Assembly: GCA_000146465.1 (NCBI GenBank) | Contig: CP001951.1 | Strand: one strand, 5' to 3' | Length of the DNA: 64,000 bases | Part shown: positions 5,901-55,624 of the stretch, piece by piece | Layout of the letters: each line of letters begins with the position of its first letter | Numbering within the stretch: position 1 is the first letter of the stretch | Made by a program: the position numbers and the translations under genes | The notes under the pieces: model-generated | What the model was told of the DNA's origin: nothing | The model's database searches: none | The model's input: only the letters and a program-made list of their open reading frames with translations

Positions 5901-8900
5901 TTATGAAAGATGAGAAAGTGTATGAGCATGCATGCTTTATTGTAAATAGATTCTTTGAGTATTCTGACGAATTCATTGAAATGGCTAGTAATGTTCTTCT
6001 GTTTGGAACGGTTGGGCGATGTCCTCATAGGATAGATATCAAAGAGATCGGAAAGAAGATTTCAGGACTTGTTATGTCTGAAGTTTCGTCGCCAAAGGTA
6101 CTGTTTTTCCTAATTATGTACTTTCGGCTGCTTCATCGGTTGGGGATGCCCAGACATTGTGGATTTGATCTTGGAAAGTTGATTTCACGAGTTAAAACAT
6201 GTGACGAGATGACTTTGATGAGAATACTCATCAGCTACATAATAACCCCGGATATCGATAGTATTTTGGAAAGGTCTGGAATTCCCTCAAGAAGGATTAG
6301 GAGCAAGGATAGAGAATTCTTAAAGTCCCATGATTTCCTTATATACAGAGACTATGATCTTTTTGTTGAGAAATGTCTAAAGAAGTCGGGTCTTGGACCT
6401 ATAGATGGGATCTGCTTCAAACATGGATGCAATAGGACTTTCTCTCTAAAGGGAGAAGAGATATCTGTATCGGACAAGGAAATCGACTGCAGCAAGACTT
6501 TCATTAGAAAGCTCGTTCTTTTGCTGGATACCCAAGAATATTTCGGAATGGTAATTCAGCTTCTCTGCGAAATGATGTTTAACCATCCATCTCTTTTGCA
6601 CGATATATGTAGATATCAGGTTTTGGACATTGTGTATGAAAGATGCATTAGAAAAATGGATGTATCAAGCAAGCACAAGGTGACTGGAGAACTGCATTGG
6701 GGTATAATGCTGTTTGTCATTGGACTCTATTCGGAGGTTCTTTTGTCGAAGTCCAGCACAGGTTCTGAGAAGAAAAGCGAGACTGAGCAAGAAAACACAA
6801 GAAAGAGTCTTCCATCTGTATCTGACTTTCTCCTTGAAAAGATCAAAGATGGATCCAATGAGGACTTTCTGAACGTGTCGTTCATACTTGTTAGAAGCCT
6901 CACACCATTGTTTATTCTAAGGCACGAAGATGAAGAAGATACAACCATGGAGAGGTTCCGAGAGATTTCGATTTTTATGGGATCAGTAGGGATCTTTGAG
7001 AAGATTATCAAGAGAATAATTGCTGTTGATGAAAGCGACCCAAAATACATAACATGCATCCAATGTTCGCTGGACTATCTTGGAAGGGTTTTTAGGCATT
7101 GCTACGGCGACATTCTTCAAGATCTGGACGACTATGGTGACGACGAATCCCGTGAGATTGAATACTATAGTCTCGTTTCCGAGGACCATGGATTTGAGGA
7201 AAGTATTTTTGACTCCGACGAGAGCTATTTTTTTGATGATCCACCATTCCATGAAATTGAAGAGGAGAGGGCCATGGAGTCTGATGAAGCGGAAAGCTCC
7301 TCACAATCGGAAAATACAGTGTTCATCAAAAGCATTGAAAACGATCATGAGATGCCAACGGAAATGTATCTGATTAGCTCCGAGTATTACAATATTTCTG
7401 CAGAAAGTAGAACCGAGATCGAGGCTCTTATGTGCAGAAAGCTCTACGTCGACTTAATTGATAGCAGCACAAGCTGCTATACCTGGATGGTTAATAATTT
7501 CCAAAAGAGTATAGTTTGTGAGCTAAGGGAGCCGAGTGTTCATTGTAAGGAGCCTGAGAGGTCTTTGAATGAAGATGACAAGGATGAGGGCTATGTCACT
7601 GATGGTGAGGAAAAGATGATATGGAATTTCGAACCAACAAACGATGAAGATAATCTGGAAGATACAAATGAAGCCTTGGACACTTCAAATCCACCAGATA
7701 GAGAGGAGATAGAAGAGGAGAATGAGGACGTTGGATCCTCGGAATCTGATGTCGGGTCTCAGAACGGAGAGATTCCGACTCTTGACCCTGATAATCTCAA
7801 CAGAATGGAGGAAGACGAGCTAAACGAAGTTCTGAAAGCCTATTTCGACGAGAGACGATCCCTATCGCTGACTTATATACCTCTCCACACGGGTTTCTAT
7901 GAAAGGCTTTCTTCCCGTGTAAGACCTATGTTTGAGGAGATGGAAAGAGTGTATAGAGAGAGTTTCTTCTACGACATTAGAACCGAGTCTACCAAGGAGA
8001 GTGACGAAGAAATCATGGAAACCAAAGAGAATCTCCTTGAGATGGATCTTTCAACATTTGAAGAATTCATCAAGAAATCTATCGTCGAAAAGGATTTCCC
8101 ATTTGCCAAGAGCTGGAAGTTAGTTGATGCACTTTCCAAGGATACAAAAATGAAGAGTGTTGTCTTCAAAGTATCCAACAGCATGATCTCGTCAATTTCA
8201 TCATCTCAGGAAGGAGACCTTAATAATTACGACGCAGTGAAATTCCGAAGAACTTTGTGCTTTCTTCTTAGCATCGTTAAAAGCTCAATAAGGTACTATG
8301 GCTATTTCCGAGAAAACCCTGAAATTGTAAGAAAAGTTTTTATTCTTCTTGGAAAGGTGAAATTAACCAATGATCTTTTGAGACTAGTGACTGACTTCAG
8401 TGTTATCTTTAGGAAGGACAAGGACTTTGTCTTTGGCCAAGACATCGATTTGGAAAATATTCTCGGTTGCTTTGGAAGAATGGTTGACTCTGAATGCTTC
8501 AACCTTCTTGAGGAGTTCATGGAGAACACCGCCGACCACTTTGGCCCGAGATTCCTAGATATTATTCTGGTAGAGATAAAGCAGCAATTTTCGATCCTCT
8601 CCAAAGACATTGGAAAGGAGTTTCCTTCCGATGCATTTCTAGAAAGTCAAAAGATATTTTTGAGACTTTGGAAGATGATGACAAAAGTTATAGGAAGAAG
8701 CAATTTGTGTAGTGAGGAAAGAGACATTGCACTTCTGAGTCTGATGCTGAATCCTCTCTGGAATGTGTTTTTTGAAAATCAGAAGAACAAGGAATCGATT
8801 GAAGACCTCATTAATGTATCGGATATCTACGAAGCTTTTTTTGTTGTTGGAAAGGTGTTTGAAAATAGGTTCGGGGAAACAGAGAATACAGGTTGCGCAG

Positions 8901-21880: not shown

Positions 21881-22372
21881 ATGGGATATAATTTGGCAAT
21901 GACCCCAGCTTTGTTCATGTCAAGGTTGCCCAATCTTGCCTCCTCTCGTATGAATGAAATAAGAAAAGTCTACATAGAAGCCAACAATAGAATTGTTGAG
22001 GAAATAGATGCAGTAACAGAAAAGTTCTCAAAAGAAGTTGAGACCATTCCTAACATCTCGGCCAGCGTAAGGATATATCTTGAAGAAAAAATCAGATCTA
22101 TACGTGAGTTTGTTGTCGATAGTATTGGATTTTCAATAGGCGAGTTTAGAGCCTTATACAATCCCGATGGAAATGAAAGCATAAAAACGAGAAGATTTCC
22201 AAAGTTCATAACCGAGGCACTAGAAAGGAGCTTTGAGATTGACCAATATCCGTCCGAAGCCGAAAAGTCAAGACTTGCAAAAATATGTAAACTTTCGACA
22301 AAGCAAATAAACAACTGGTTTACGAACAAAAGAAATAGAAGCAAAAGCCATGATGGGGGTAGGCAGTACTAG
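21881..22372 (+). CDS. homeobox protein, typical (60-aa) homeodomain at C-terminus (HD1-like)
   Basis: 163 aa. Homeodomain IKTRRFPKFITEALERSFEIDQYPSEAEKSRLAKICKLSTKQINNWFTNKRNRSK, with WF-N-R in helix 3 and no 3-aa loop extension. Unusually long 5' (343 bp) and 3' (517 bp) intergenic regions. Confidence 0.8.
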   Translation: MGYNLAMTPALFMSRLPNLASSRMNEIRKVYIEANNRIVEEIDAVTEKFSKEVETIPNISASVRIYLEEKIRSIREFVVDSIGFSIGEFRALYNPDGNESIKTRRFPKFITEALERSFEIDQYPSEAEKSRLAKICKLSTKQINNWFTNKRNRSKSHDGGRQY

Positions 22373-22800
22373 GCTGTGAATGGGAGGCGCATATGATTTT
22401 AATATAATCCATGTATGTATTTCTTTGAAGTAAAGTAAGAGACTAAATTAGTATAACTCTTCTTAAAGCCCCAATGGCAAGTAATATAAGTTATTCTTGA
22501 TACGAAGATCAATCTCACCTCGATTCTCTATTTTAGGAAAGGTGAAATTTTCGTGGTAGGAAGATCTTTGACGACCTAAATTTCGTAGGAGAAAGATACG
22601 ACAGAATCGACCGAGTGTGAATGAGATAACATAGTATTTTAATTGTTAATTTAAACAATTAGTTTTCGATGTAATATACAAAACCACCGATGTGTAGAGG
22701 AAATTGGTTCCAAGACAGAACACTAGAAAAGGATGTTACAAGACAACATGAGACTGTAGACTTCTATGCGCGCTTGGATAGGCCAGATTCTATTTATTTC

Positions 22801-22813
22801 TGTCATATTGACA
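22801..22813. promoter_or_regulatory. inverted repeat of TALE-homeodomain half-site TGTCA-tat-TGACA upstream of the TALE homeobox gene
   Basis: TGTCATATTGACA read directly, about 95 bp upstream of the HD2 ATG. TGACA is the core site bound by MEIS/KNOX/TGIF-class TALE homeodomains. Confidence 0.25.
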
Positions 22814-22908
22814 CAATTGAAATATTAAATTATAAAACCTCTATCAAACAAGATTAATTAAGCTATCGCGAGACAATTAGATAAAACAGAGTGAATGGAG
22901 CGGTAGCC

Positions 22909-23478
22909 ATGAACATGATAATGGATATATTGAATCAAGTTATGTATGCTGAAGAATGCTATTTCTCCAACAGAGTTAGCAGAGAGAAATTAATGGAAGA
23001 CATAAGACGTCTTCGGAGTGAATACGAGATTGGAATAATGAGAGACTCTGGAAGAGAAGGAATAAAATTCAAAATGGCATTGCTATTTATTCTTAGAAGA
23101 GTGAGACACAAGATTATACTTGAAGACAGACTCATGGAGATGATTGATTCCGAGGTTGCTTTCGTTAGAGGATGTGTAAGCAGTATCATCTCTGAGCCCT
23201 TCGGAGTCAAGCCTGTAGAAACCATGAGGCCTACACAACAAGAAGCAGAGACCAGGTGTGCCAAACCAAGGACAAGGGCCAACTTCCCTATGGACACTTC
23301 ACAGCTTCTGAGATCTTGGCTTAAAGAGAATATGGATAACCCATATCCATCGGATGCCGAAAAGGCATATCTTTGCCAGAAGACTGGCCTTGGTCCTGCA
23401 CAGATTAATAATTGGTTTATAAATGCTAGGAGAAGAATCTTACCTTTCATGAAAGGAAAGCGTGCGAGTTTCAAATAA
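22909..23478 (+). CDS. TALE-class homeobox protein (HD2-like)
   Basis: ORF-track start 22891 is GTG. The first ATG is at 22909. Homeodomain KPRTRANFPMDTSQLLRSWLKENMDNPYPSDAEKAYLCQKTGLGPAQINNWFINARRR, with a PYP three-amino-acid loop extension and WFINARRR, which defines TALE class. Confidence 0.8.
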   Translation: MNMIMDILNQVMYAEECYFSNRVSREKLMEDIRRLRSEYEIGIMRDSGREGIKFKMALLFILRRVRHKIILEDRLMEMIDSEVAFVRGCVSSIISEPFGVKPVETMRPTQQEAETRCAKPRTRANFPMDTSQLLRSWLKENMDNPYPSDAEKAYLCQKTGLGPAQINNWFINARRRILPFMKGKRASFK

Positions 23479-40846: not shown

Positions 40847-42781
40847 TTACAAGGTCTCTTTCTTAGGTATTTTGCTTTCACTGCCTACATCAATCTCTTC
40901 CTTTATGTCCAAAGCAGTCCTTCTGACTATAAACACAGGATCCTTTGTAAAGCTGTCAATGTTTAAGATCTCTCCAAAAAACTTAGGCCATTCTCTATAC
41001 GAATGGAGTAGTGCTCTTCGATACCTCCAGTCATTCTCATAGTTCGTGCACAGAGTCTTGGATATTTTCAATAGGAATTCGTTATCTGGGAAGTGGTCTA
41101 GAACCCTGATCTGAGAAAGAAAAGCCTTCCTGTAGCGTTTGCATACCTCAAGAACGATTCTTTCCAATTCTTGCTCTATACAAAACTCGGGGGAATTAAG
41201 CCGCTTGGCGTTCTTAAACGTCTTTTCGTCGCCCAGCATAGACATCTTCTCTTCATCCTTCGAGAGTTTGTTATTCTCCTCTGTGCTGTTAAATAAATTA
41301 AGAAGGATTTTGACTATCTCTTCCAGATCTTCGGCAATGTGTGCATAGACAGCATCCGAGACTCTTTCGATCTTGCTTTCGCATATCTCCTCAAGGATAA
41401 GGAACATTTTCTTGTGGGGAAAAGACCGGAGAAACTTGATGTACAGCTTGCTTATGTTGGAATAGTCGTTGACAGACGAAATAGATATCGATCCAAAAGT
41501 GTCTGCACACCATTCGATGTAAAGCCCGAAAGTTGTGTCTGTTACAGGTAGATTATCAGACTTCAGCATCTCTCTTTTTGAATTCCTCATTCTCCCAATC
41601 ATAGCCTCCAAGACTCCAGAATCTATTGCTTTTAACTTGAATATGTGGGAGGCACATACAGGTTCGTACTCTGTGCCTATATACTTCTCAAACAAATCTA
41701 GAAGTTCCTTGTCAAAAGACAAGCTAAGATATAAGGCAACATTCTCAAGGAAAAACCTCGGAGAAACAGACTCAATGTCCAGCAGATACTTCTTAGCCTC
41801 CTTCAGACATCGGCTTTCATCCGAGGGCTTATAGGAAGCACACAGACAAGTCTTGTCTTCCGATTCTTCAACTCTACATCTACAAACTCCATCATGACAT
41901 TCCTCTTCATATGGTCTTTGGTGAGGTCGGCACTCAAGAGTGTCCCCTTCCAACTTGTTTTTAGCTTCCTCCCGATCTTTACTGTTATTTGATGGCGAAG
42001 TAGTAGATTCAAAAAATGGCTTGTCTTGGCTAAAACTTAGTTCCTCAGGGAGTCCCTCCATTCCATCTTCTCTTCTGCCTCCCCCCGCACTATCAATCGA
42101 ATAGAAATCCGTTTTCTTTTCGCATTCTACTCCTTTATCGTCCCCAAGCTCCCCTACCGAGGATATTTTCATGTTTTTGATCCACTCTTCCATTTCCAAA
42201 CTGCTCATTTCCCTGGCGTCCTTGCATCGCCCACACTTATACTTCAAGCTTCTTTCCCTCATAAGCCTGACCTTCAAGAGATACAGCTCCACAAGAAAAT
42301 CCTTTTTCTTCTCAAACATTTCAAACAGCTCGTCAAACTCCGCCCTGCTTGTTCTGGTAAATAGGAAGGCTACAATATCAACCACCTGTTTTGTGCATAT
42401 TCTGGCAAACGGAAGAATAAGCTTGTAAAGGTAGTCTATGTATCCTGTAGAGACTTTATTTTCCCCACTGCTGATTGAAAGACCGCATTTACTGGCAACA
42501 AAACTTATTTCTTCATCTTCTTTTTGTTTTTCAAAATGGTCTTGTAAAGCATTTCCAACCATCTCCAACACAATCAGACTTGTGTTAAAATCCAATAGCT
42601 TGGTCCCCATCATAATCTTGACCATCTTCTCAAAATCTACTGCCGAGTGGCTATACACCTGCTGAATATTTCTGTATGCCCACACAACATTCTCCGGGTC
42701 GTTCATATTCAAGCTGTCGATCCGGAAAGAAAAGTCCTGGATGTCTGTACAGCCAGCTCCCTTGATCTTGCTGTCCCCCAT
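40847..42781 (-). CDS. hypothetical protein (about 644 aa) with internal cysteine cluster
   Basis: ORF-track start 42793 is TTG. The ATG at 42781 has CCCC upstream. Helical repeat-like, with a Cys cluster ECHDGVCRCRVEESEDKTCLC. Family not recognised. Confidence 0.4.
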   Translation of the reverse strand: MGDSKIKGAGCTDIQDFSFRIDSLNMNDPENVVWAYRNIQQVYSHSAVDFEKMVKIMMGTKLLDFNTSLIVLEMVGNALQDHFEKQKEDEEISFVASKCGLSISSGENKVSTGYIDYLYKLILPFARICTKQVVDIVAFLFTRTSRAEFDELFEMFEKKKDFLVELYLLKVRLMRERSLKYKCGRCKDAREMSSLEMEEWIKNMKISSVGELGDDKGVECEKKTDFYSIDSAGGGRREDGMEGLPEELSFSQDKPFFESTTSPSNNSKDREEAKNKLEGDTLECRPHQRPYEEECHDGVCRCRVEESEDKTCLCASYKPSDESRCLKEAKKYLLDIESVSPRFFLENVALYLSLSFDKELLDLFEKYIGTEYEPVCASHIFKLKAIDSGVLEAMIGRMRNSKREMLKSDNLPVTDTTFGLYIEWCADTFGSISISSVNDYSNISKLYIKFLRSFPHKKMFLILEEICESKIERVSDAVYAHIAEDLEEIVKILLNLFNSTEENNKLSKDEEKMSMLGDEKTFKNAKRLNSPEFCIEQELERIVLEVCKRYRKAFLSQIRVLDHFPDNEFLLKISKTLCTNYENDWRYRRALLHSYREWPKFFGEILNIDSFTKDPVFIVRRTALDIKEEIDVGSESKIPKKETL

Positions 42782-43118
42782 CAATGGGGTCAAAAATCAA
42801 CATTTATTTCGAGATCTGCCGCTCACCAGATTTAAAATTATGTATATCTTTATACCTTTTCATTACCATCATGGTCTTAAGATACTCCAATTAATACTCC
42901 ATTAATCTACTGTATGATAAATTCTATTGATTTTGGATATGTCATAAGGAACTTTTCATCACATGATTTTACACTCAGACTACAAAGGATATATAATAGA
43001 CTCTAGTAGTATCAGATTAATTACGAATATTTCCAAAACAAGAAAAAGAACACGTCTCTAGAACATATTCTTTGTAGTTTAAATGTATAAATAGAATGCA
43101 ATAGGAAGGAAATTAAAG

Positions 43119-44285
43119 ATGATAAAGCTCTCACTTCTCCTAAGTCTAGCGAGCTTCACTGCAGTTCTTGCAAACCAAAGGCCTCGCTGCCAAAGATGCC
43201 CAGTGAGCAGCAGTAAGTACTTCCAACAAAATAATCTTCTTGGAAGCAGGTTCCAAAACGAGGTACAGAGACTTTGCGCCCGCCGTGTGCGAGAAGAAAG
43301 TTCTTCTGAATCATCCTCTTCCTCTAGCTCTGAAGACTGCTCCCGAAGAAGGAGAAGACCCCACAGAGAATGGGAGGACAGCTGTTCATCATCATATTCT
43401 TCTTGCAGTAGCACAGATAGCTGCTCTTCAAGCGCCCCCTGCCCACCTCCAGTGGCTCAAAGGTGTGATATCGAACTCAAGACTCCTATAATCCTGATGG
43501 GAGAAAGGATCTACGAATTCCTCAAGAACTACGAGGACCAGTACAAGAAGGCTGTTCTTCTTTTCTTGACCAATATCCTTTCGCAGATCTCAGGATTCAA
43601 CCCAGTCTTCCCTGGTGGAGACTACGATGCTCTGATTGAACAACTCAAGACACTTGGAGTCACTGTCCCAGCAAACACTGCTGCCGAGCTTGCCGCCATA
43701 GATGCTGCTGAGTCGTCAGCCCTCACAAGGGCCATTCAGGCCAATGCACAGAAGGTAATTAGCGATCTACTTACCAGGGTCAGTGCCATGTGCTACTTGG
43801 ACATCATGAGCCTTGTCAACAGTGGTCTTCTAGCCAGCCAAGTCTCAAGTGTTTTCAACAACATCCAGCCAATAATCACCATTGCCGGAAATGATTTGTT
43901 TGCCAAACAGATGGCAGTGTTCCAGAAGATACCAGGAACTCTGCCCTCCGCTGCCATCACAGCTATCACCAATGCTCTCCAAGGCAACAGGACCAACTTT
44001 GTCACATTCTTTACAACTCAGACAAGCAATCTGCAAACAAGCGTCCAGAACTCTCTTACAACCCTGATTTCTGAGCTTGAGAAGCTGGCCACCGACACGG
44101 AGACTGCCTTCACAGCTTTTGCAAATGCAGAAATTTCAGCACTTATAAGCAGAATCTTCCCAACATCCACCACATCTTCGGGATCCGGAGACTCTACAGG
44201 GTCTGGAAGCACGGGAGATGCAGGAGATGCGGGAGATACAGGAGAGGACGGCGGAGATGATGAGGGTACAGAAGGAACTGGTTAG
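43119..44285 (+). CDS. secreted Cys/Ser-rich protein with acidic Gly/Ser/Asp-rich C-terminal tail; candidate spore wall (SWP1-like) protein
   Basis: 388 aa. Clear signal peptide [18 protein letters not shown]|NQ. N-terminal region with about 11 Cys and poly-Ser runs. Central Ala/Thr/Gln-rich domain. C-terminus [36 protein letters not shown]. Confidence 0.6.
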
Positions 44286-44480
44286 AACTACCTATCCTAA
44301 TGTCTGAGTCCGGAATCGGCTGTTATAAAGCATAGCAAAATATCAGCCAGGACTCAAATGGCCTCGTGGTTAGAATATGCCCATATACTATCTTCGCTGA
44401 TATCAAGGCTTTTCACAAGGCTGTAAATAAAACTGATTTCCAAACTAGTGTATTTTAACGATGTGTGGTTGGGAAGACCC

Positions 44481-52558: not shown

Positions 52559-55500
52559 CTAAACTTCGCTCCCAATATACTTAGAATTCACGAGGTCAAT
52601 AAATCTACATACGCTAAACGAGCATATCCCTGCTATGTCACAGATGTTGTTTCCATTCTTCCTTAGCTTAAGAAGATCATCAAACCTGAACGAGACAGGA
52701 TGGGAAACCAAAATATTCTGGACATAAATCTCCACGCTAAAGAGAAGAGGAGTGTCGGAGAGAAATAGGAAGAATATCTCGGAGATATCGGGAGAGTCAT
52801 ATATTTGGACCAATACTCCCATGTTCATTAACTTCTCAGCACTGTACTTATGAGTCCCATATTTAGAATCCCTAATGATATCGTCAACACCGTTAAATCC
52901 AAACAAGGACCTCCTCTTGATAGCCAATTTTGCAGCGAAAGAGTTGAGATAGTTCTGATAAAGCTCTATCTTTCCTGATAGGTAATCATCTTTGTAGCAT
53001 AGATTGTCGTAACTTATCTCATTTATCCTGAGCTCTTTGCTTCTTTCTTCAGACATGAATCTCAGAATGACTATATCTTGAGCTAGCATAAAGAGGAGTT
53101 CTGAATACAGGTTATGTCTACTAGTGATCTTCTTATCTTCCAAGAAGTTCAAATCATCAATGATGGACTCTTTCAGCTGGTCGATAGTTTCGTATTGCTT
53201 TGGTGGAGATGCTATTGACAAGCCGTCATCCTCCTCCTTGGTGCAAATAGCACTCTTCTTCATTTCCAAGTATCGGGATCTCTCCTCTTCATCGGATTCC
53301 TTTAAAAGCATCTCAAGCAAGTTTCTTCCCTTGCACACCGATATGGCATATATAAGCTTTCTCTTTAAACCTCTTACAAAGTTCTCCAACGCTATCTTTT
53401 CGGGATCCTGAGAACATATCCATTCAGGCCCAAAGAAAGTGAATGAGAGTGTTTTGTTTTGATCGTCTGGGAACAAAGGTAGGGTCTCAAGAATCTCACA
53501 CAACTCCGAACCAAGTATCCTAGTGTTGCTTAGGAGGAGAGTTATTAATTGGTTTGCAGTACTACTTGGAAGATGTACGGTTGCCCGCTTGAGCTTTCCC
53601 AACTCATTCATCGACTCAAACTGGAAGTAATGATCAAGTCCAGAGACGTTTGTAAGTTTGGAAAGAATAGATTGATATCTTTCGTGGCACCTTCTGAAAA
53701 AGGGATAAAGAGGGGAATAGAACCTAAGTTCAAAGTTCTTTTTCTCCCCACTTATAAAGGACATGTACTTACTCATTCCGTCCCCGTCTTTTTCCTCTTC
53801 ACCGTTGTCTGATTCCTCGAAGAACATTACTCTGTCTGCTATATGTTCCAGAATCTTGGATATTATAAAGCACTTATTTCTAAGAGATTTCCCAACCTCA
53901 AATGATTCAATAAATGCATCCGGAGCAAGAATGAAAGGCATTACAAATTCCGAATAGAATGTCCTAGGGCCGTATAGCTTAAGGAAGTATCTAAGGATAT
54001 AAGGAATTGATTCAACACTAGACTCCAGAAGATCCAGCGCCGATGCAATCACTCCACGAACCACCATAAGCCTTGTCTGCACCGCTTCCCTAACTCTCTC
54101 ATTCTCCAATGCTTTGTCCGCAGACGTACTTTGGTTGAATAGCATTTTGTATATGAGAACCGGATTCGCATCCACTTCGATGTTTTCCAGGTTCTTTACA
54201 ACTTGAAGAATCTTGTCTCGAAGAACAAAGCTCCCCTGGGATATCCTGAAATAGTTAACCATTAACTTGTGGGAAATCGATCCAGGCATCAAAGTATGGT
54301 GAACTGGGAATTCCACTTCTCTAAATAACTCGAGAGAGAAAAAGGTACTAGAATGGATTCCTAAAGACATGTCTATCGGGACGAGTTTCCTTACATCAAG
54401 TCCATTATCGAGAAGCTCTTTCCTGAATATCTCCAGCACAAGGTTTATAAACATGTATTCCTCTTTCTTTGAAGAAACATTGGAGAAGATAGGAATAATG
54501 ATGGAGACTATAAAAGAATCTGGGTCGTTAACGTTTCTAAGAAGCTCAGAAAGATACTTAGGGTTGTTCTGCAAAAACAGTAATACTCTTTCAAAGTCTC
54601 TGGTGTCTTCATCCTCTGGAATCGGATTTTTGATTGTTATGTTTCCTACTTCCATCCTGTTCTGAACTATTAGTCTAATTCTTGTCTCAATGTCCTTTAT
54701 CTGTGCTTCCTTGGCATAGATACTGTCAAACTTCCGTGATATCTTGTGATGAAGATTTTCTATAAGATTTTCCTTGACCATCTCGGATGAATTACTGAAG
54801 AAAATAAACGCAAACCTTCGGATCGAAAACAGAGAGACCTCCTTCCTATAGTAGATATCATCAAAACATTTTTTGTACAAAAAGGTCCGAAGAGTCAGCT
54901 TGAGAATATCAAAAGATTCGTCACAAACACTTATGTCCTCCGATAGAAAACTCCCTTCCTTTTCTTCTACATTCTCCTGATCTAAAATCTCTTTTCTTAC
55001 TTTATTTTCCCCATTACCTGCTGCTTCCTCCATAGCTATCTTTTCCTTTAGCACATCTTCAATGTTGTCAAACTTAGGCATGTTCATCTTCTCAACCTGA
55101 ACATCAGCTCTTGCCATATCATCATAGGAAAAGATCTTCCCTTTAGCACTCTTGATATTCTTGGAAATTCCCTTTGAACTCAAAAGATGTGCTAAAGCAT
55201 GGATGCAGTATATGACCTTAACAAAGTTTTTCTTTTCATATAAGTCGATAACCTCGAAATGGAAGTATTCCGGCAGTCCAATATGCGATACTCCACTTAA
55301 AAAGTAGTTGATATTGTCCGTGTGCCTGTATTGCAAAGTACAATCAACAAAAACATTTTTTACAGAGTTAGGTGCAAATACTTTGCATATATCAGTAAGA
55401 ATCACTCCTTTCCTCATTTCCTCTTCAAACTCTTCAAATGATTCAGGTACAGAGGTAAAATCTCCCAACCACGACTTCGCCTCCTCAAGCCTGCATAGGT

Positions 55501-55624
55501 ACTCGTATGCCCGAGTGTTTCTTCTCTCTAAGTCCATGTCTTCAGACGACACATGAACATCGGTACCTAACCTTTGGTGAACATTAATACTATTTTTCTT
55601 GAGCTCTTCTTTTTTGCTTTCCAT
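52559..55624 (-). CDS. IQG1: IQGAP-like Ras GTPase-activating-like scaffold protein
   Basis: The N-terminal calponin-homology domain aligns with IQGAP1 (AYEYLCRLEEAKSWLGD...FEEEMRKGVILTDICKVFAP...YRHTDNINYF...IYCIHALAHLL versus YEYLCHLEEAKRWMEACLGE...LEEGLRNGVYLAKL...FRHTDNVIQW...IYCIHALSLYL). 1021 aa with a RasGAP-related region downstream. Confidence 0.75.
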   Translation of the reverse strand: MESKKEELKKNSINVHQRLGTDVHVSSEDMDLERRNTRAYEYLCRLEEAKSWLGDFTSVPESFEEFEEEMRKGVILTDICKVFAPNSVKNVFVDCTLQYRHTDNINYFLSGVSHIGLPEYFHFEVIDLYEKKNFVKVIYCIHALAHLLSSKGISKNIKSAKGKIFSYDDMARADVQVEKMNMPKFDNIEDVLKEKIAMEEAAGNGENKVRKEILDQENVEEKEGSFLSEDISVCDESFDILKLTLRTFLYKKCFDDIYYRKEVSLFSIRRFAFIFFSNSSEMVKENLIENLHHKISRKFDSIYAKEAQIKDIETRIRLIVQNRMEVGNITIKNPIPEDEDTRDFERVLLFLQNNPKYLSELLRNVNDPDSFIVSIIIPIFSNVSSKKEEYMFINLVLEIFRKELLDNGLDVRKLVPIDMSLGIHSSTFFSLELFREVEFPVHHTLMPGSISHKLMVNYFRISQGSFVLRDKILQVVKNLENIEVDANPVLIYKMLFNQSTSADKALENERVREAVQTRLMVVRGVIASALDLLESSVESIPYILRYFLKLYGPRTFYSEFVMPFILAPDAFIESFEVGKSLRNKCFIISKILEHIADRVMFFEESDNGEEEKDGDGMSKYMSFISGEKKNFELRFYSPLYPFFRRCHERYQSILSKLTNVSGLDHYFQFESMNELGKLKRATVHLPSSTANQLITLLLSNTRILGSELCEILETLPLFPDDQNKTLSFTFFGPEWICSQDPEKIALENFVRGLKRKLIYAISVCKGRNLLEMLLKESDEEERSRYLEMKKSAICTKEEDDGLSIASPPKQYETIDQLKESIIDDLNFLEDKKITSRHNLYSELLFMLAQDIVILRFMSEERSKELRINEISYDNLCYKDDYLSGKIELYQNYLNSFAAKLAIKRRSLFGFNGVDDIIRDSKYGTHKYSAEKLMNMGVLVQIYDSPDISEIFFLFLSDTPLLFSVEIYVQNILVSHPVSFRFDDLLKLRKNGNNICDIAGICSFSVCRFIDLVNSKYIGSEV

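Follow-up and report, generated by a model that had tools for sequence, protein, structure and literature searches.

The window analyzed here is a stretch of 64,000 nucleotides from contig CP001951.1 (assembly GCA_000146465.1). On its forward strand, it carries the swp1 coding sequence (43119 to 44285), which starts with the ATG at 43119, ends with the stop codon at 44283 to 44285, and specifies a protein of 388 amino acids. The translated product is an exact match to GenBank ADM12488.1, annotated as [quoted passage not shown] which assigns the window to E. intestinalis, and the same gene is called, with the same neighbors, in the deposited E. intestinalis assembly GCA_051312795.1. When we compared the product with UniProt Q95WA3 (SWP1_ENCIN), a cDNA-derived entry (AF355750, Hayman et al. 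2001), 387 of 388 residues were identical. The sole amino-acid difference lies at codon 256 (43884 to 43886), which specifies Ala in the genome strain and Thr in Q95WA3 (A256T); it may reflect strain polymorphism or an old difference in sequencing. The computed mass of 41.5 kDa agrees with the values given for EiSWP1 in reviews (388 aa, 41.5 kDa; PMC7040029), and the computed pI of about 4.8 to 4.9 indicates a protein that is acidic overall.

The initial annotation, made from the sequence alone, had proposed for this gene a product of the SWP1/SWP2 kind, as known from the spore wall (exospore) of Encephalitozoon. The exact match to ADM12488.1, the near-identity to Q95WA3, and the placement of the protein in the exospore by reviews all bear this out, and in a homologue search, every named protein was SWP1-type. 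Each defining feature of the SWP1 family that could be tested was found, including a conserved N-terminal portion of approximately 350 aa with conserved cysteines, and the gene is the E. intestinalis type member of the family. We encountered no evidence contrary to this identity, and a mismatch with AF355750 or ADM12488 is excluded. We conclude with very high confidence that 43119 to 44285 is swp1 of E. intestinalis and that SWP1 has a structural role in the exospore, the protein layer on the outside of the spore wall. The identification is not new as a discovery, because a 2001 publication had already described the gene, the protein, and where in the spore it is located. In this opportunistic pathogen of humans, SWP1 is a major surface antigen, and it serves as a target for diagnosis and strain typing.

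Gene order around swp1

E. intestinalis, E. cuniculi, and E. hellem have the same genes in the same order at this locus: UPF1-like helicase, a 644-aa gene, SWP1, DEAD-box helicase, enolase, and Rpr2. In a fourth Encephalitozoon genome, this order holds as far as enolase, where the sequence examined ends. Overall, gene order indicates SWP1 orthology in four genomes of Encephalitozoon and in that of a more distant microsporidian. The 644-aa gene, which is divergent from swp1 (40847 to 42781, reverse strand), has no Pfam family, and its position is the same in each of the five genomes examined.

The more distant microsporidian is represented by a 52.9-kb Logan contig (DRR353006) on which two tandem SWP1-like genes, at 6001 to 7107 (368 aa) and 7480 to 8817 (445 aa), fill the swp1 slot, flanked by the upstream gene on one side and the DEAD helicase on the other. 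The presence of a tandem pair in the same slot indicates that the locus is old and was duplicated in at least one lineage.

Domain architecture of SWP1

SWP1 is composed of four parts: a signal peptide, a region rich in Cys, Ser, and Arg, a conserved domain of 233 aa, and an acidic tail of Gly, Thr, Asp, and Ser. The signal peptide comprises residues 1 to 18 (43119 to 43172), which are strongly hydrophobic (Kyte-Doolittle 11-residue means of 1.6 to 2.1) and end in a V-L-A cleavage context, with V at -3 and A at -1 before N19. The N-termini of the homologues are conserved as well, and a published table lists the signal peptide of EiSWP1 as "yes/18" (PMC5697631), in agreement with the signal peptide that had been recognized in the initial annotation.

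The next region (residues 19 to 115, 43173 to 43463) is predicted to be disordered (pLDDT <50). By composition, residues 19 to 117 include 9 of the 10 cysteines in the protein, 27% Ser, 15% Arg, and one run of seven Ser; the cysteines and poly-Ser are kept in distant homologues. Within this region lies a basic patch (residues 76 to 87, 43344 to 43379) that contains RRRRRPHR at 76 to 83 and in which R77, R78, and R83 are invariant in Encephalitozoon. The earlier description of an N-terminal domain rich in Cys and poly-Ser with a basic patch is thus accurate.

At the other end of the protein, the tail (residues 349 to 388, 44163 to 44282) is lineage-specific and also predicted to be disordered (pLDDT <50). 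Residues 351 to 388 consist of 34% G, 18% T, 18% D, and 16% S and have a net charge of -10. A repeat scan detected a weak 9-nt tandem repeat, GGAGATGCA, present in 3.6 copies at 44214 to 44245 on the forward strand and encoding GDA/GDT units. The tail had been characterized as strongly acidic and repeat-like, with G, S, D, and T as its main residues, and both its charge and this weak repeat support that characterization. C-terminal tails vary between species in length and sequence.

The central helical domain

The family-defining module of SWP1 is the conserved domain at residues 116 to 348 (43464 to 44162), which we characterized by alignment, an AlphaFold2 model, and a profile search. It is the best conserved segment of the protein, with 70 to 73% identity and a mean column identity of 83% across four species. 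AlphaFold2 predicted an all-alpha domain of seven helices with pLDDT mostly between 80 and 96, in a model built from only seven sequences and with two of the five models scoring poorly. Residues 118 to 350 consist of 12% A, 12% L, 10% T, 9% I, 8% S, and about 6% Q. The initial annotation had seen here a 200-aa domain rich in Ala, Thr, and Gln, which is only roughly right given this composition: Ala and Thr are indeed abundant, but Leu and Ile are prominent too and Gln is not. The middle part of SWP1 is a conserved domain, confidently predicted to be all-alpha, rather than a low-complexity or compositionally biased spacer.

We searched for relatives of this domain at several levels. In a Pfam scan of SWP1, no family passed the threshold and the weaker hits were helical noise (e.g., Baculo_PEP_C and ApoLp-III), and a sequence-profile search of the PDB returned no related solved structure, only noise. 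Fold comparison likewise detected no solved relative beyond generic helical bundles; the only likeness was to long bundles such as those of apolipoprotein A-IV, BAR domains, ClyA, and designed proteins. When a profile of the helical domain was searched against 1.84 billion cluster representatives, only 14 proteins matched, among them an Ordospora pajunii protein and several metagenome or read-archive proteins. Modest results that specialists may find useful are a folded domain that has no Pfam model or solved relative, a tiny family, an Ordospora orthologue that still carries the label "hypothetical," and a gene whose position and unusual promoter context are conserved across species.

SWP1 homologues and SWP2

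The close homologues of SWP1 are 61 to 67% identical to it and comprise E. cuniculi Swp1b (416 aa), E. hellem proteins of the SWP1a/b type (506 to 533 aa), and a 411-aa protein. In the alignment, conservation extends from the signal peptide to approximately residue 348, with C27, C53, C74, C116, and C225 invariant, and the tails are species-specific. The E. cuniculi protein (EcSWP1/Swp1b, ECU10_1660; Bohne et al. 2000) and the E. hellem proteins (EhSWP1a/b; Polonais et al. 2010) are encoded by orthologues in the same gene order. They share with EiSWP1 the signal peptide, the Cys/Ser-rich N-region, Cys116, and Cys225, and the overall identity of 61 to 67% rises to 70 to 73% in the helical domain. 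The tails differ: E. cuniculi has Gly/Ser repeats and E. hellem has long repeats rich in Glu, Lys, and Thr, whereas the tail of EiSWP1 is a short stretch of 40 aa composed of Gly, Asp, and Thr.

Several tail variants are found within E. hellem, where proteins of 506, 509, 529, and 533 aa have the N-terminal 350 aa or so in common and differ in their Glu/Lys/Thr-rich repeat tails. The 533-aa form occupies the syntenic locus in one assembly (CP075156). This variation fits the use of the gene for strain typing that is named in the title of a published study (Polonais 2010).

Considering all eight full-length members together, the Cys/Ser-rich N-region contains 6 to 10 cysteines and keeps its poly-Ser, the helical domain measures about 233 aa, and Cys116 and Cys225 are invariant (8 of 8). 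Seven of the eight have a signal-peptide-like N-terminus; the remaining protein, P0016, is seemingly extended at the N-terminus before its hydrophobic stretch. Most members, but not all, have an Arg/Lys-rich patch, P0010 and P0013 having R/K runs of 3 and 7, and the longest such run in P0016 being only 2. P0010 is the 389-aa Ordospora pajunii protein HK407_05g10460, which is annotated as "hypothetical protein." It has a signal peptide, a Cys/Ser-rich region, the helical domain (E value of 2.8e-52 to the domain profile), and a Pro-rich tail, and judging by its sequence, it is clearly a member of the SWP1 family.

The published partner of SWP1 is EiSWP2 (Q95WA4, 1002 aa, AF355749; Hayman et al. 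2001), which, like EiSWP1, is an exospore protein with an 18-aa signal peptide (PMC7040029; PMC5697631). Unlike EiSWP1, it is much longer and has a repeat-rich, very acidic C-terminus and a pI of 3.68 (PMC5697631). EiSWP2 was absent from the homologues recovered by either of our protein searches (the homologue search and the profile search of 1.84 billion representatives). It reportedly has an N-terminal domain with 10 conserved cysteines in common with SWP1, a feature said to have been described by Hayman and colleagues in 2001. Within the window, a tblastn search with SWP1 detected no SWP1 paralogue, and we detected no repeat-rich SWP2-like gene; the tandem-repeat scan of the whole window was empty. 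We considered an open reading frame of 1021 aa (52559 to 55624) as an SWP2-like candidate and rejected it, given that it encodes an IQGAP-type RasGAP.

The upstream spacer and promoter context

The divergent spacer upstream of swp1 (42782 to 43118) is a candidate promoter region. Its length is 337 bp when measured to the annotated ATG of the neighboring gene and 325 bp when measured to a TTG-extended form of that neighbor's open reading frame, and in four species it ranges from 335 to 355 bp. The initial annotation had taken the 325-bp spacer for the longest ordinary intergenic region of the window, but two spacers of 605 and 536 bp, each preceding a homeobox gene (21917 to 23478), exceed it. 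Neither an Rfam scan nor a tRNA scan of the window returned a hit, so the long swp1 spacer gives no hint of an RNA gene.

Most genes of E. cuniculi carry a CCC-like motif immediately ahead of the start codon and have very short 5'UTRs, whereas abundant proteins are often encoded by genes with AAATTT-like or adenine-rich sequences in place of CCC (PMC2803860). In the window, CCC is present in the 25 nt before the start codon in 25 of 40 crude gene models. There is none within that distance of the swp1 ATG, as had been noted before, and this absence is conserved in four species. In its place, directly before the ATG, swp1 has the A-rich, AAATTT-like start context AAATTAAAG (43110 to 43118, forward strand), which is invariant in the four species. 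The neighboring DEAD helicase has kept (G/A)CCC-ATG in all four. The start context of swp1 appears to fit the AAATTT-like or A-rich class described for abundant-protein genes.

A putative TATA-like element, TATAAATA, lies at -33 to -26 (43086 to 43093, forward strand) and is also invariant in four species. It is not enriched in the window, where we counted 5 occurrences compared to 3.5 expected. The four-species alignment revealed two further conserved blocks in the spacer, at -220 to -184 (42899 to 42935) and at -106 to -67 (43013 to 43052). Conservation is about equal in the downstream and upstream spacers (74% and 79%, respectively), so these blocks alone are no proof of regulation, and we rejected upstream conservation by itself as a special feature of the locus.

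The spacer between swp1 and the helicase contains two sequences that are conserved in four species: TCCTAATGTCTGAGTCC at 44295 to 44311, just past the stop codon, and TGTAAATAAAACTGATT at 44420 to 44440, which contains AATAAA. The polyadenylation signal is AAUAAA (PMC2803860). These two sequences may be 3'-end signals of swp1 or promoter elements of the helicase gene.

SWP1 in the exospore and alternative readings

EiSWP1 is listed as an exospore protein in several publications (PMC7040029; PMC10381864; PMC5697631). It has been described at the meront-to-sporont transition and in the mature spore's exospore, and it was identified as the target of monoclonal antibodies against the spore surface (PMC5680761). 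Reviews and later papers describe a protein that is present from that transition through to mature spores and that is a major target of antibodies.

The architecture suggests how SWP1 might contribute to the wall. The 18-residue signal peptide would direct the protein into the secretory pathway, so that it could be deposited at the surface of the parasite at the onset of wall formation. The conserved helical domain of 233 residues may be the assembly module, and disulfides formed by the Cys-rich, probably disordered N-region could cross-link the layer. The tail, variable and acidic with Gly, Ser, and Asp, would be surface-exposed, antigenic, and fast-evolving. Transcription probably proceeds from a TATA-like, A-rich promoter that lacks CCC, as described for genes of abundant proteins (PMC2803860).

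A broader reading of the locus can be offered only tentatively. The helical domain, with its two invariant cysteines, might define a small family without a Pfam model or solved structure, restricted to the Encephalitozoon/Ordospora branch of microsporidia, whose members self-assemble into a lattice in the exospore; the position of the gene would be an old syntenic slot that was duplicated in some lineages, and conserved CCC-less, TATA-like promoter blocks would switch on wall genes in the sporont. If true, this reading refines our picture of a known protein and does not add a new kind of system.

SWP1 might also act as a host-adhesion ligand, with RRRRRPHR (76 to 83) and ARRVRE (54 to 59) binding sulfated glycosaminoglycans of the host as EnP1 does. 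Among Cardin-Weintraub motifs, we detected one strict XBBXBX of the heparin-binding type (ARRVRE, 54 to 59) and no XBBBXXBX, in addition to the run of five Arg. A role in adhesion would be consistent with the invariance of R77, R78, and R83 in Encephalitozoon, with the Arg/Lys-rich stretches that are also found in Ordospora P0010 and in P0013, and with the host-exposed position of the exospore; sulfated glycans matter for adherence of E. intestinalis, according to a study cited in a review (Hayman 2005, cited in PMC7040029). However, tables in the literature assign a heparin-binding motif or functional domain to the spore wall adhesin EnP1 and not to EiSWP1 (PMC7040029; PMC5697631). SWP1 is acidic overall (pI about 4.8), the basic patch lies in a predicted disordered region and adjoins acidic residues, and the Arg run is shortened to RRR in E. 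hellem, with P0016 having no R/K run longer than 2. We regard an additional role in host adhesion through the basic patch as unlikely and, on these motifs, weakly supported.

The initial annotation had also named a polar-tube-associated protein as an alternative to a wall protein. SWP1 is secreted, acidic, and Cys-containing, and it is similar in size to PTP1; moreover, certain SWPs of Nosema are reported from the polar tube as well as from the wall (PMC7040029). Nevertheless, the protein is SWP1 by sequence, every homologue with a name is SWP1-type, and the wider profile search yielded SWP1-type proteins alone, with no PTP name among the matches that were looked up, an indirect comparison based on homologue names. 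Given this sequence identity and the published exospore localization of EiSWP1, we rejected the polar-tube reading and assign only the slightest probability to a polar-tube association in place of the wall. The notion of a chance low-complexity open reading frame has nothing in its favor beyond the poly-Ser and Gly/Asp stretches and can be dismissed, given the cDNA-derived entry Q95WA3, orthologues at the syntenic position in five or more genomes, the strongly conserved central domain, and the detection of E. cuniculi SWP1 by mass spectrometry (PMC5680761).

Elsewhere in the window, the two homeobox genes that follow the longer spacers are arranged in tandem on the forward strand. The first (21917 to 22372, 151 aa) encodes a Homeodomain protein, and the second (22909 to 23478, 189 aa) encodes a TALE-type protein with a Homeobox_KN domain. 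The adjacent homeobox pair of E. cuniculi was reportedly proposed by Burglin, in 2003, to be a mating-type-like locus.
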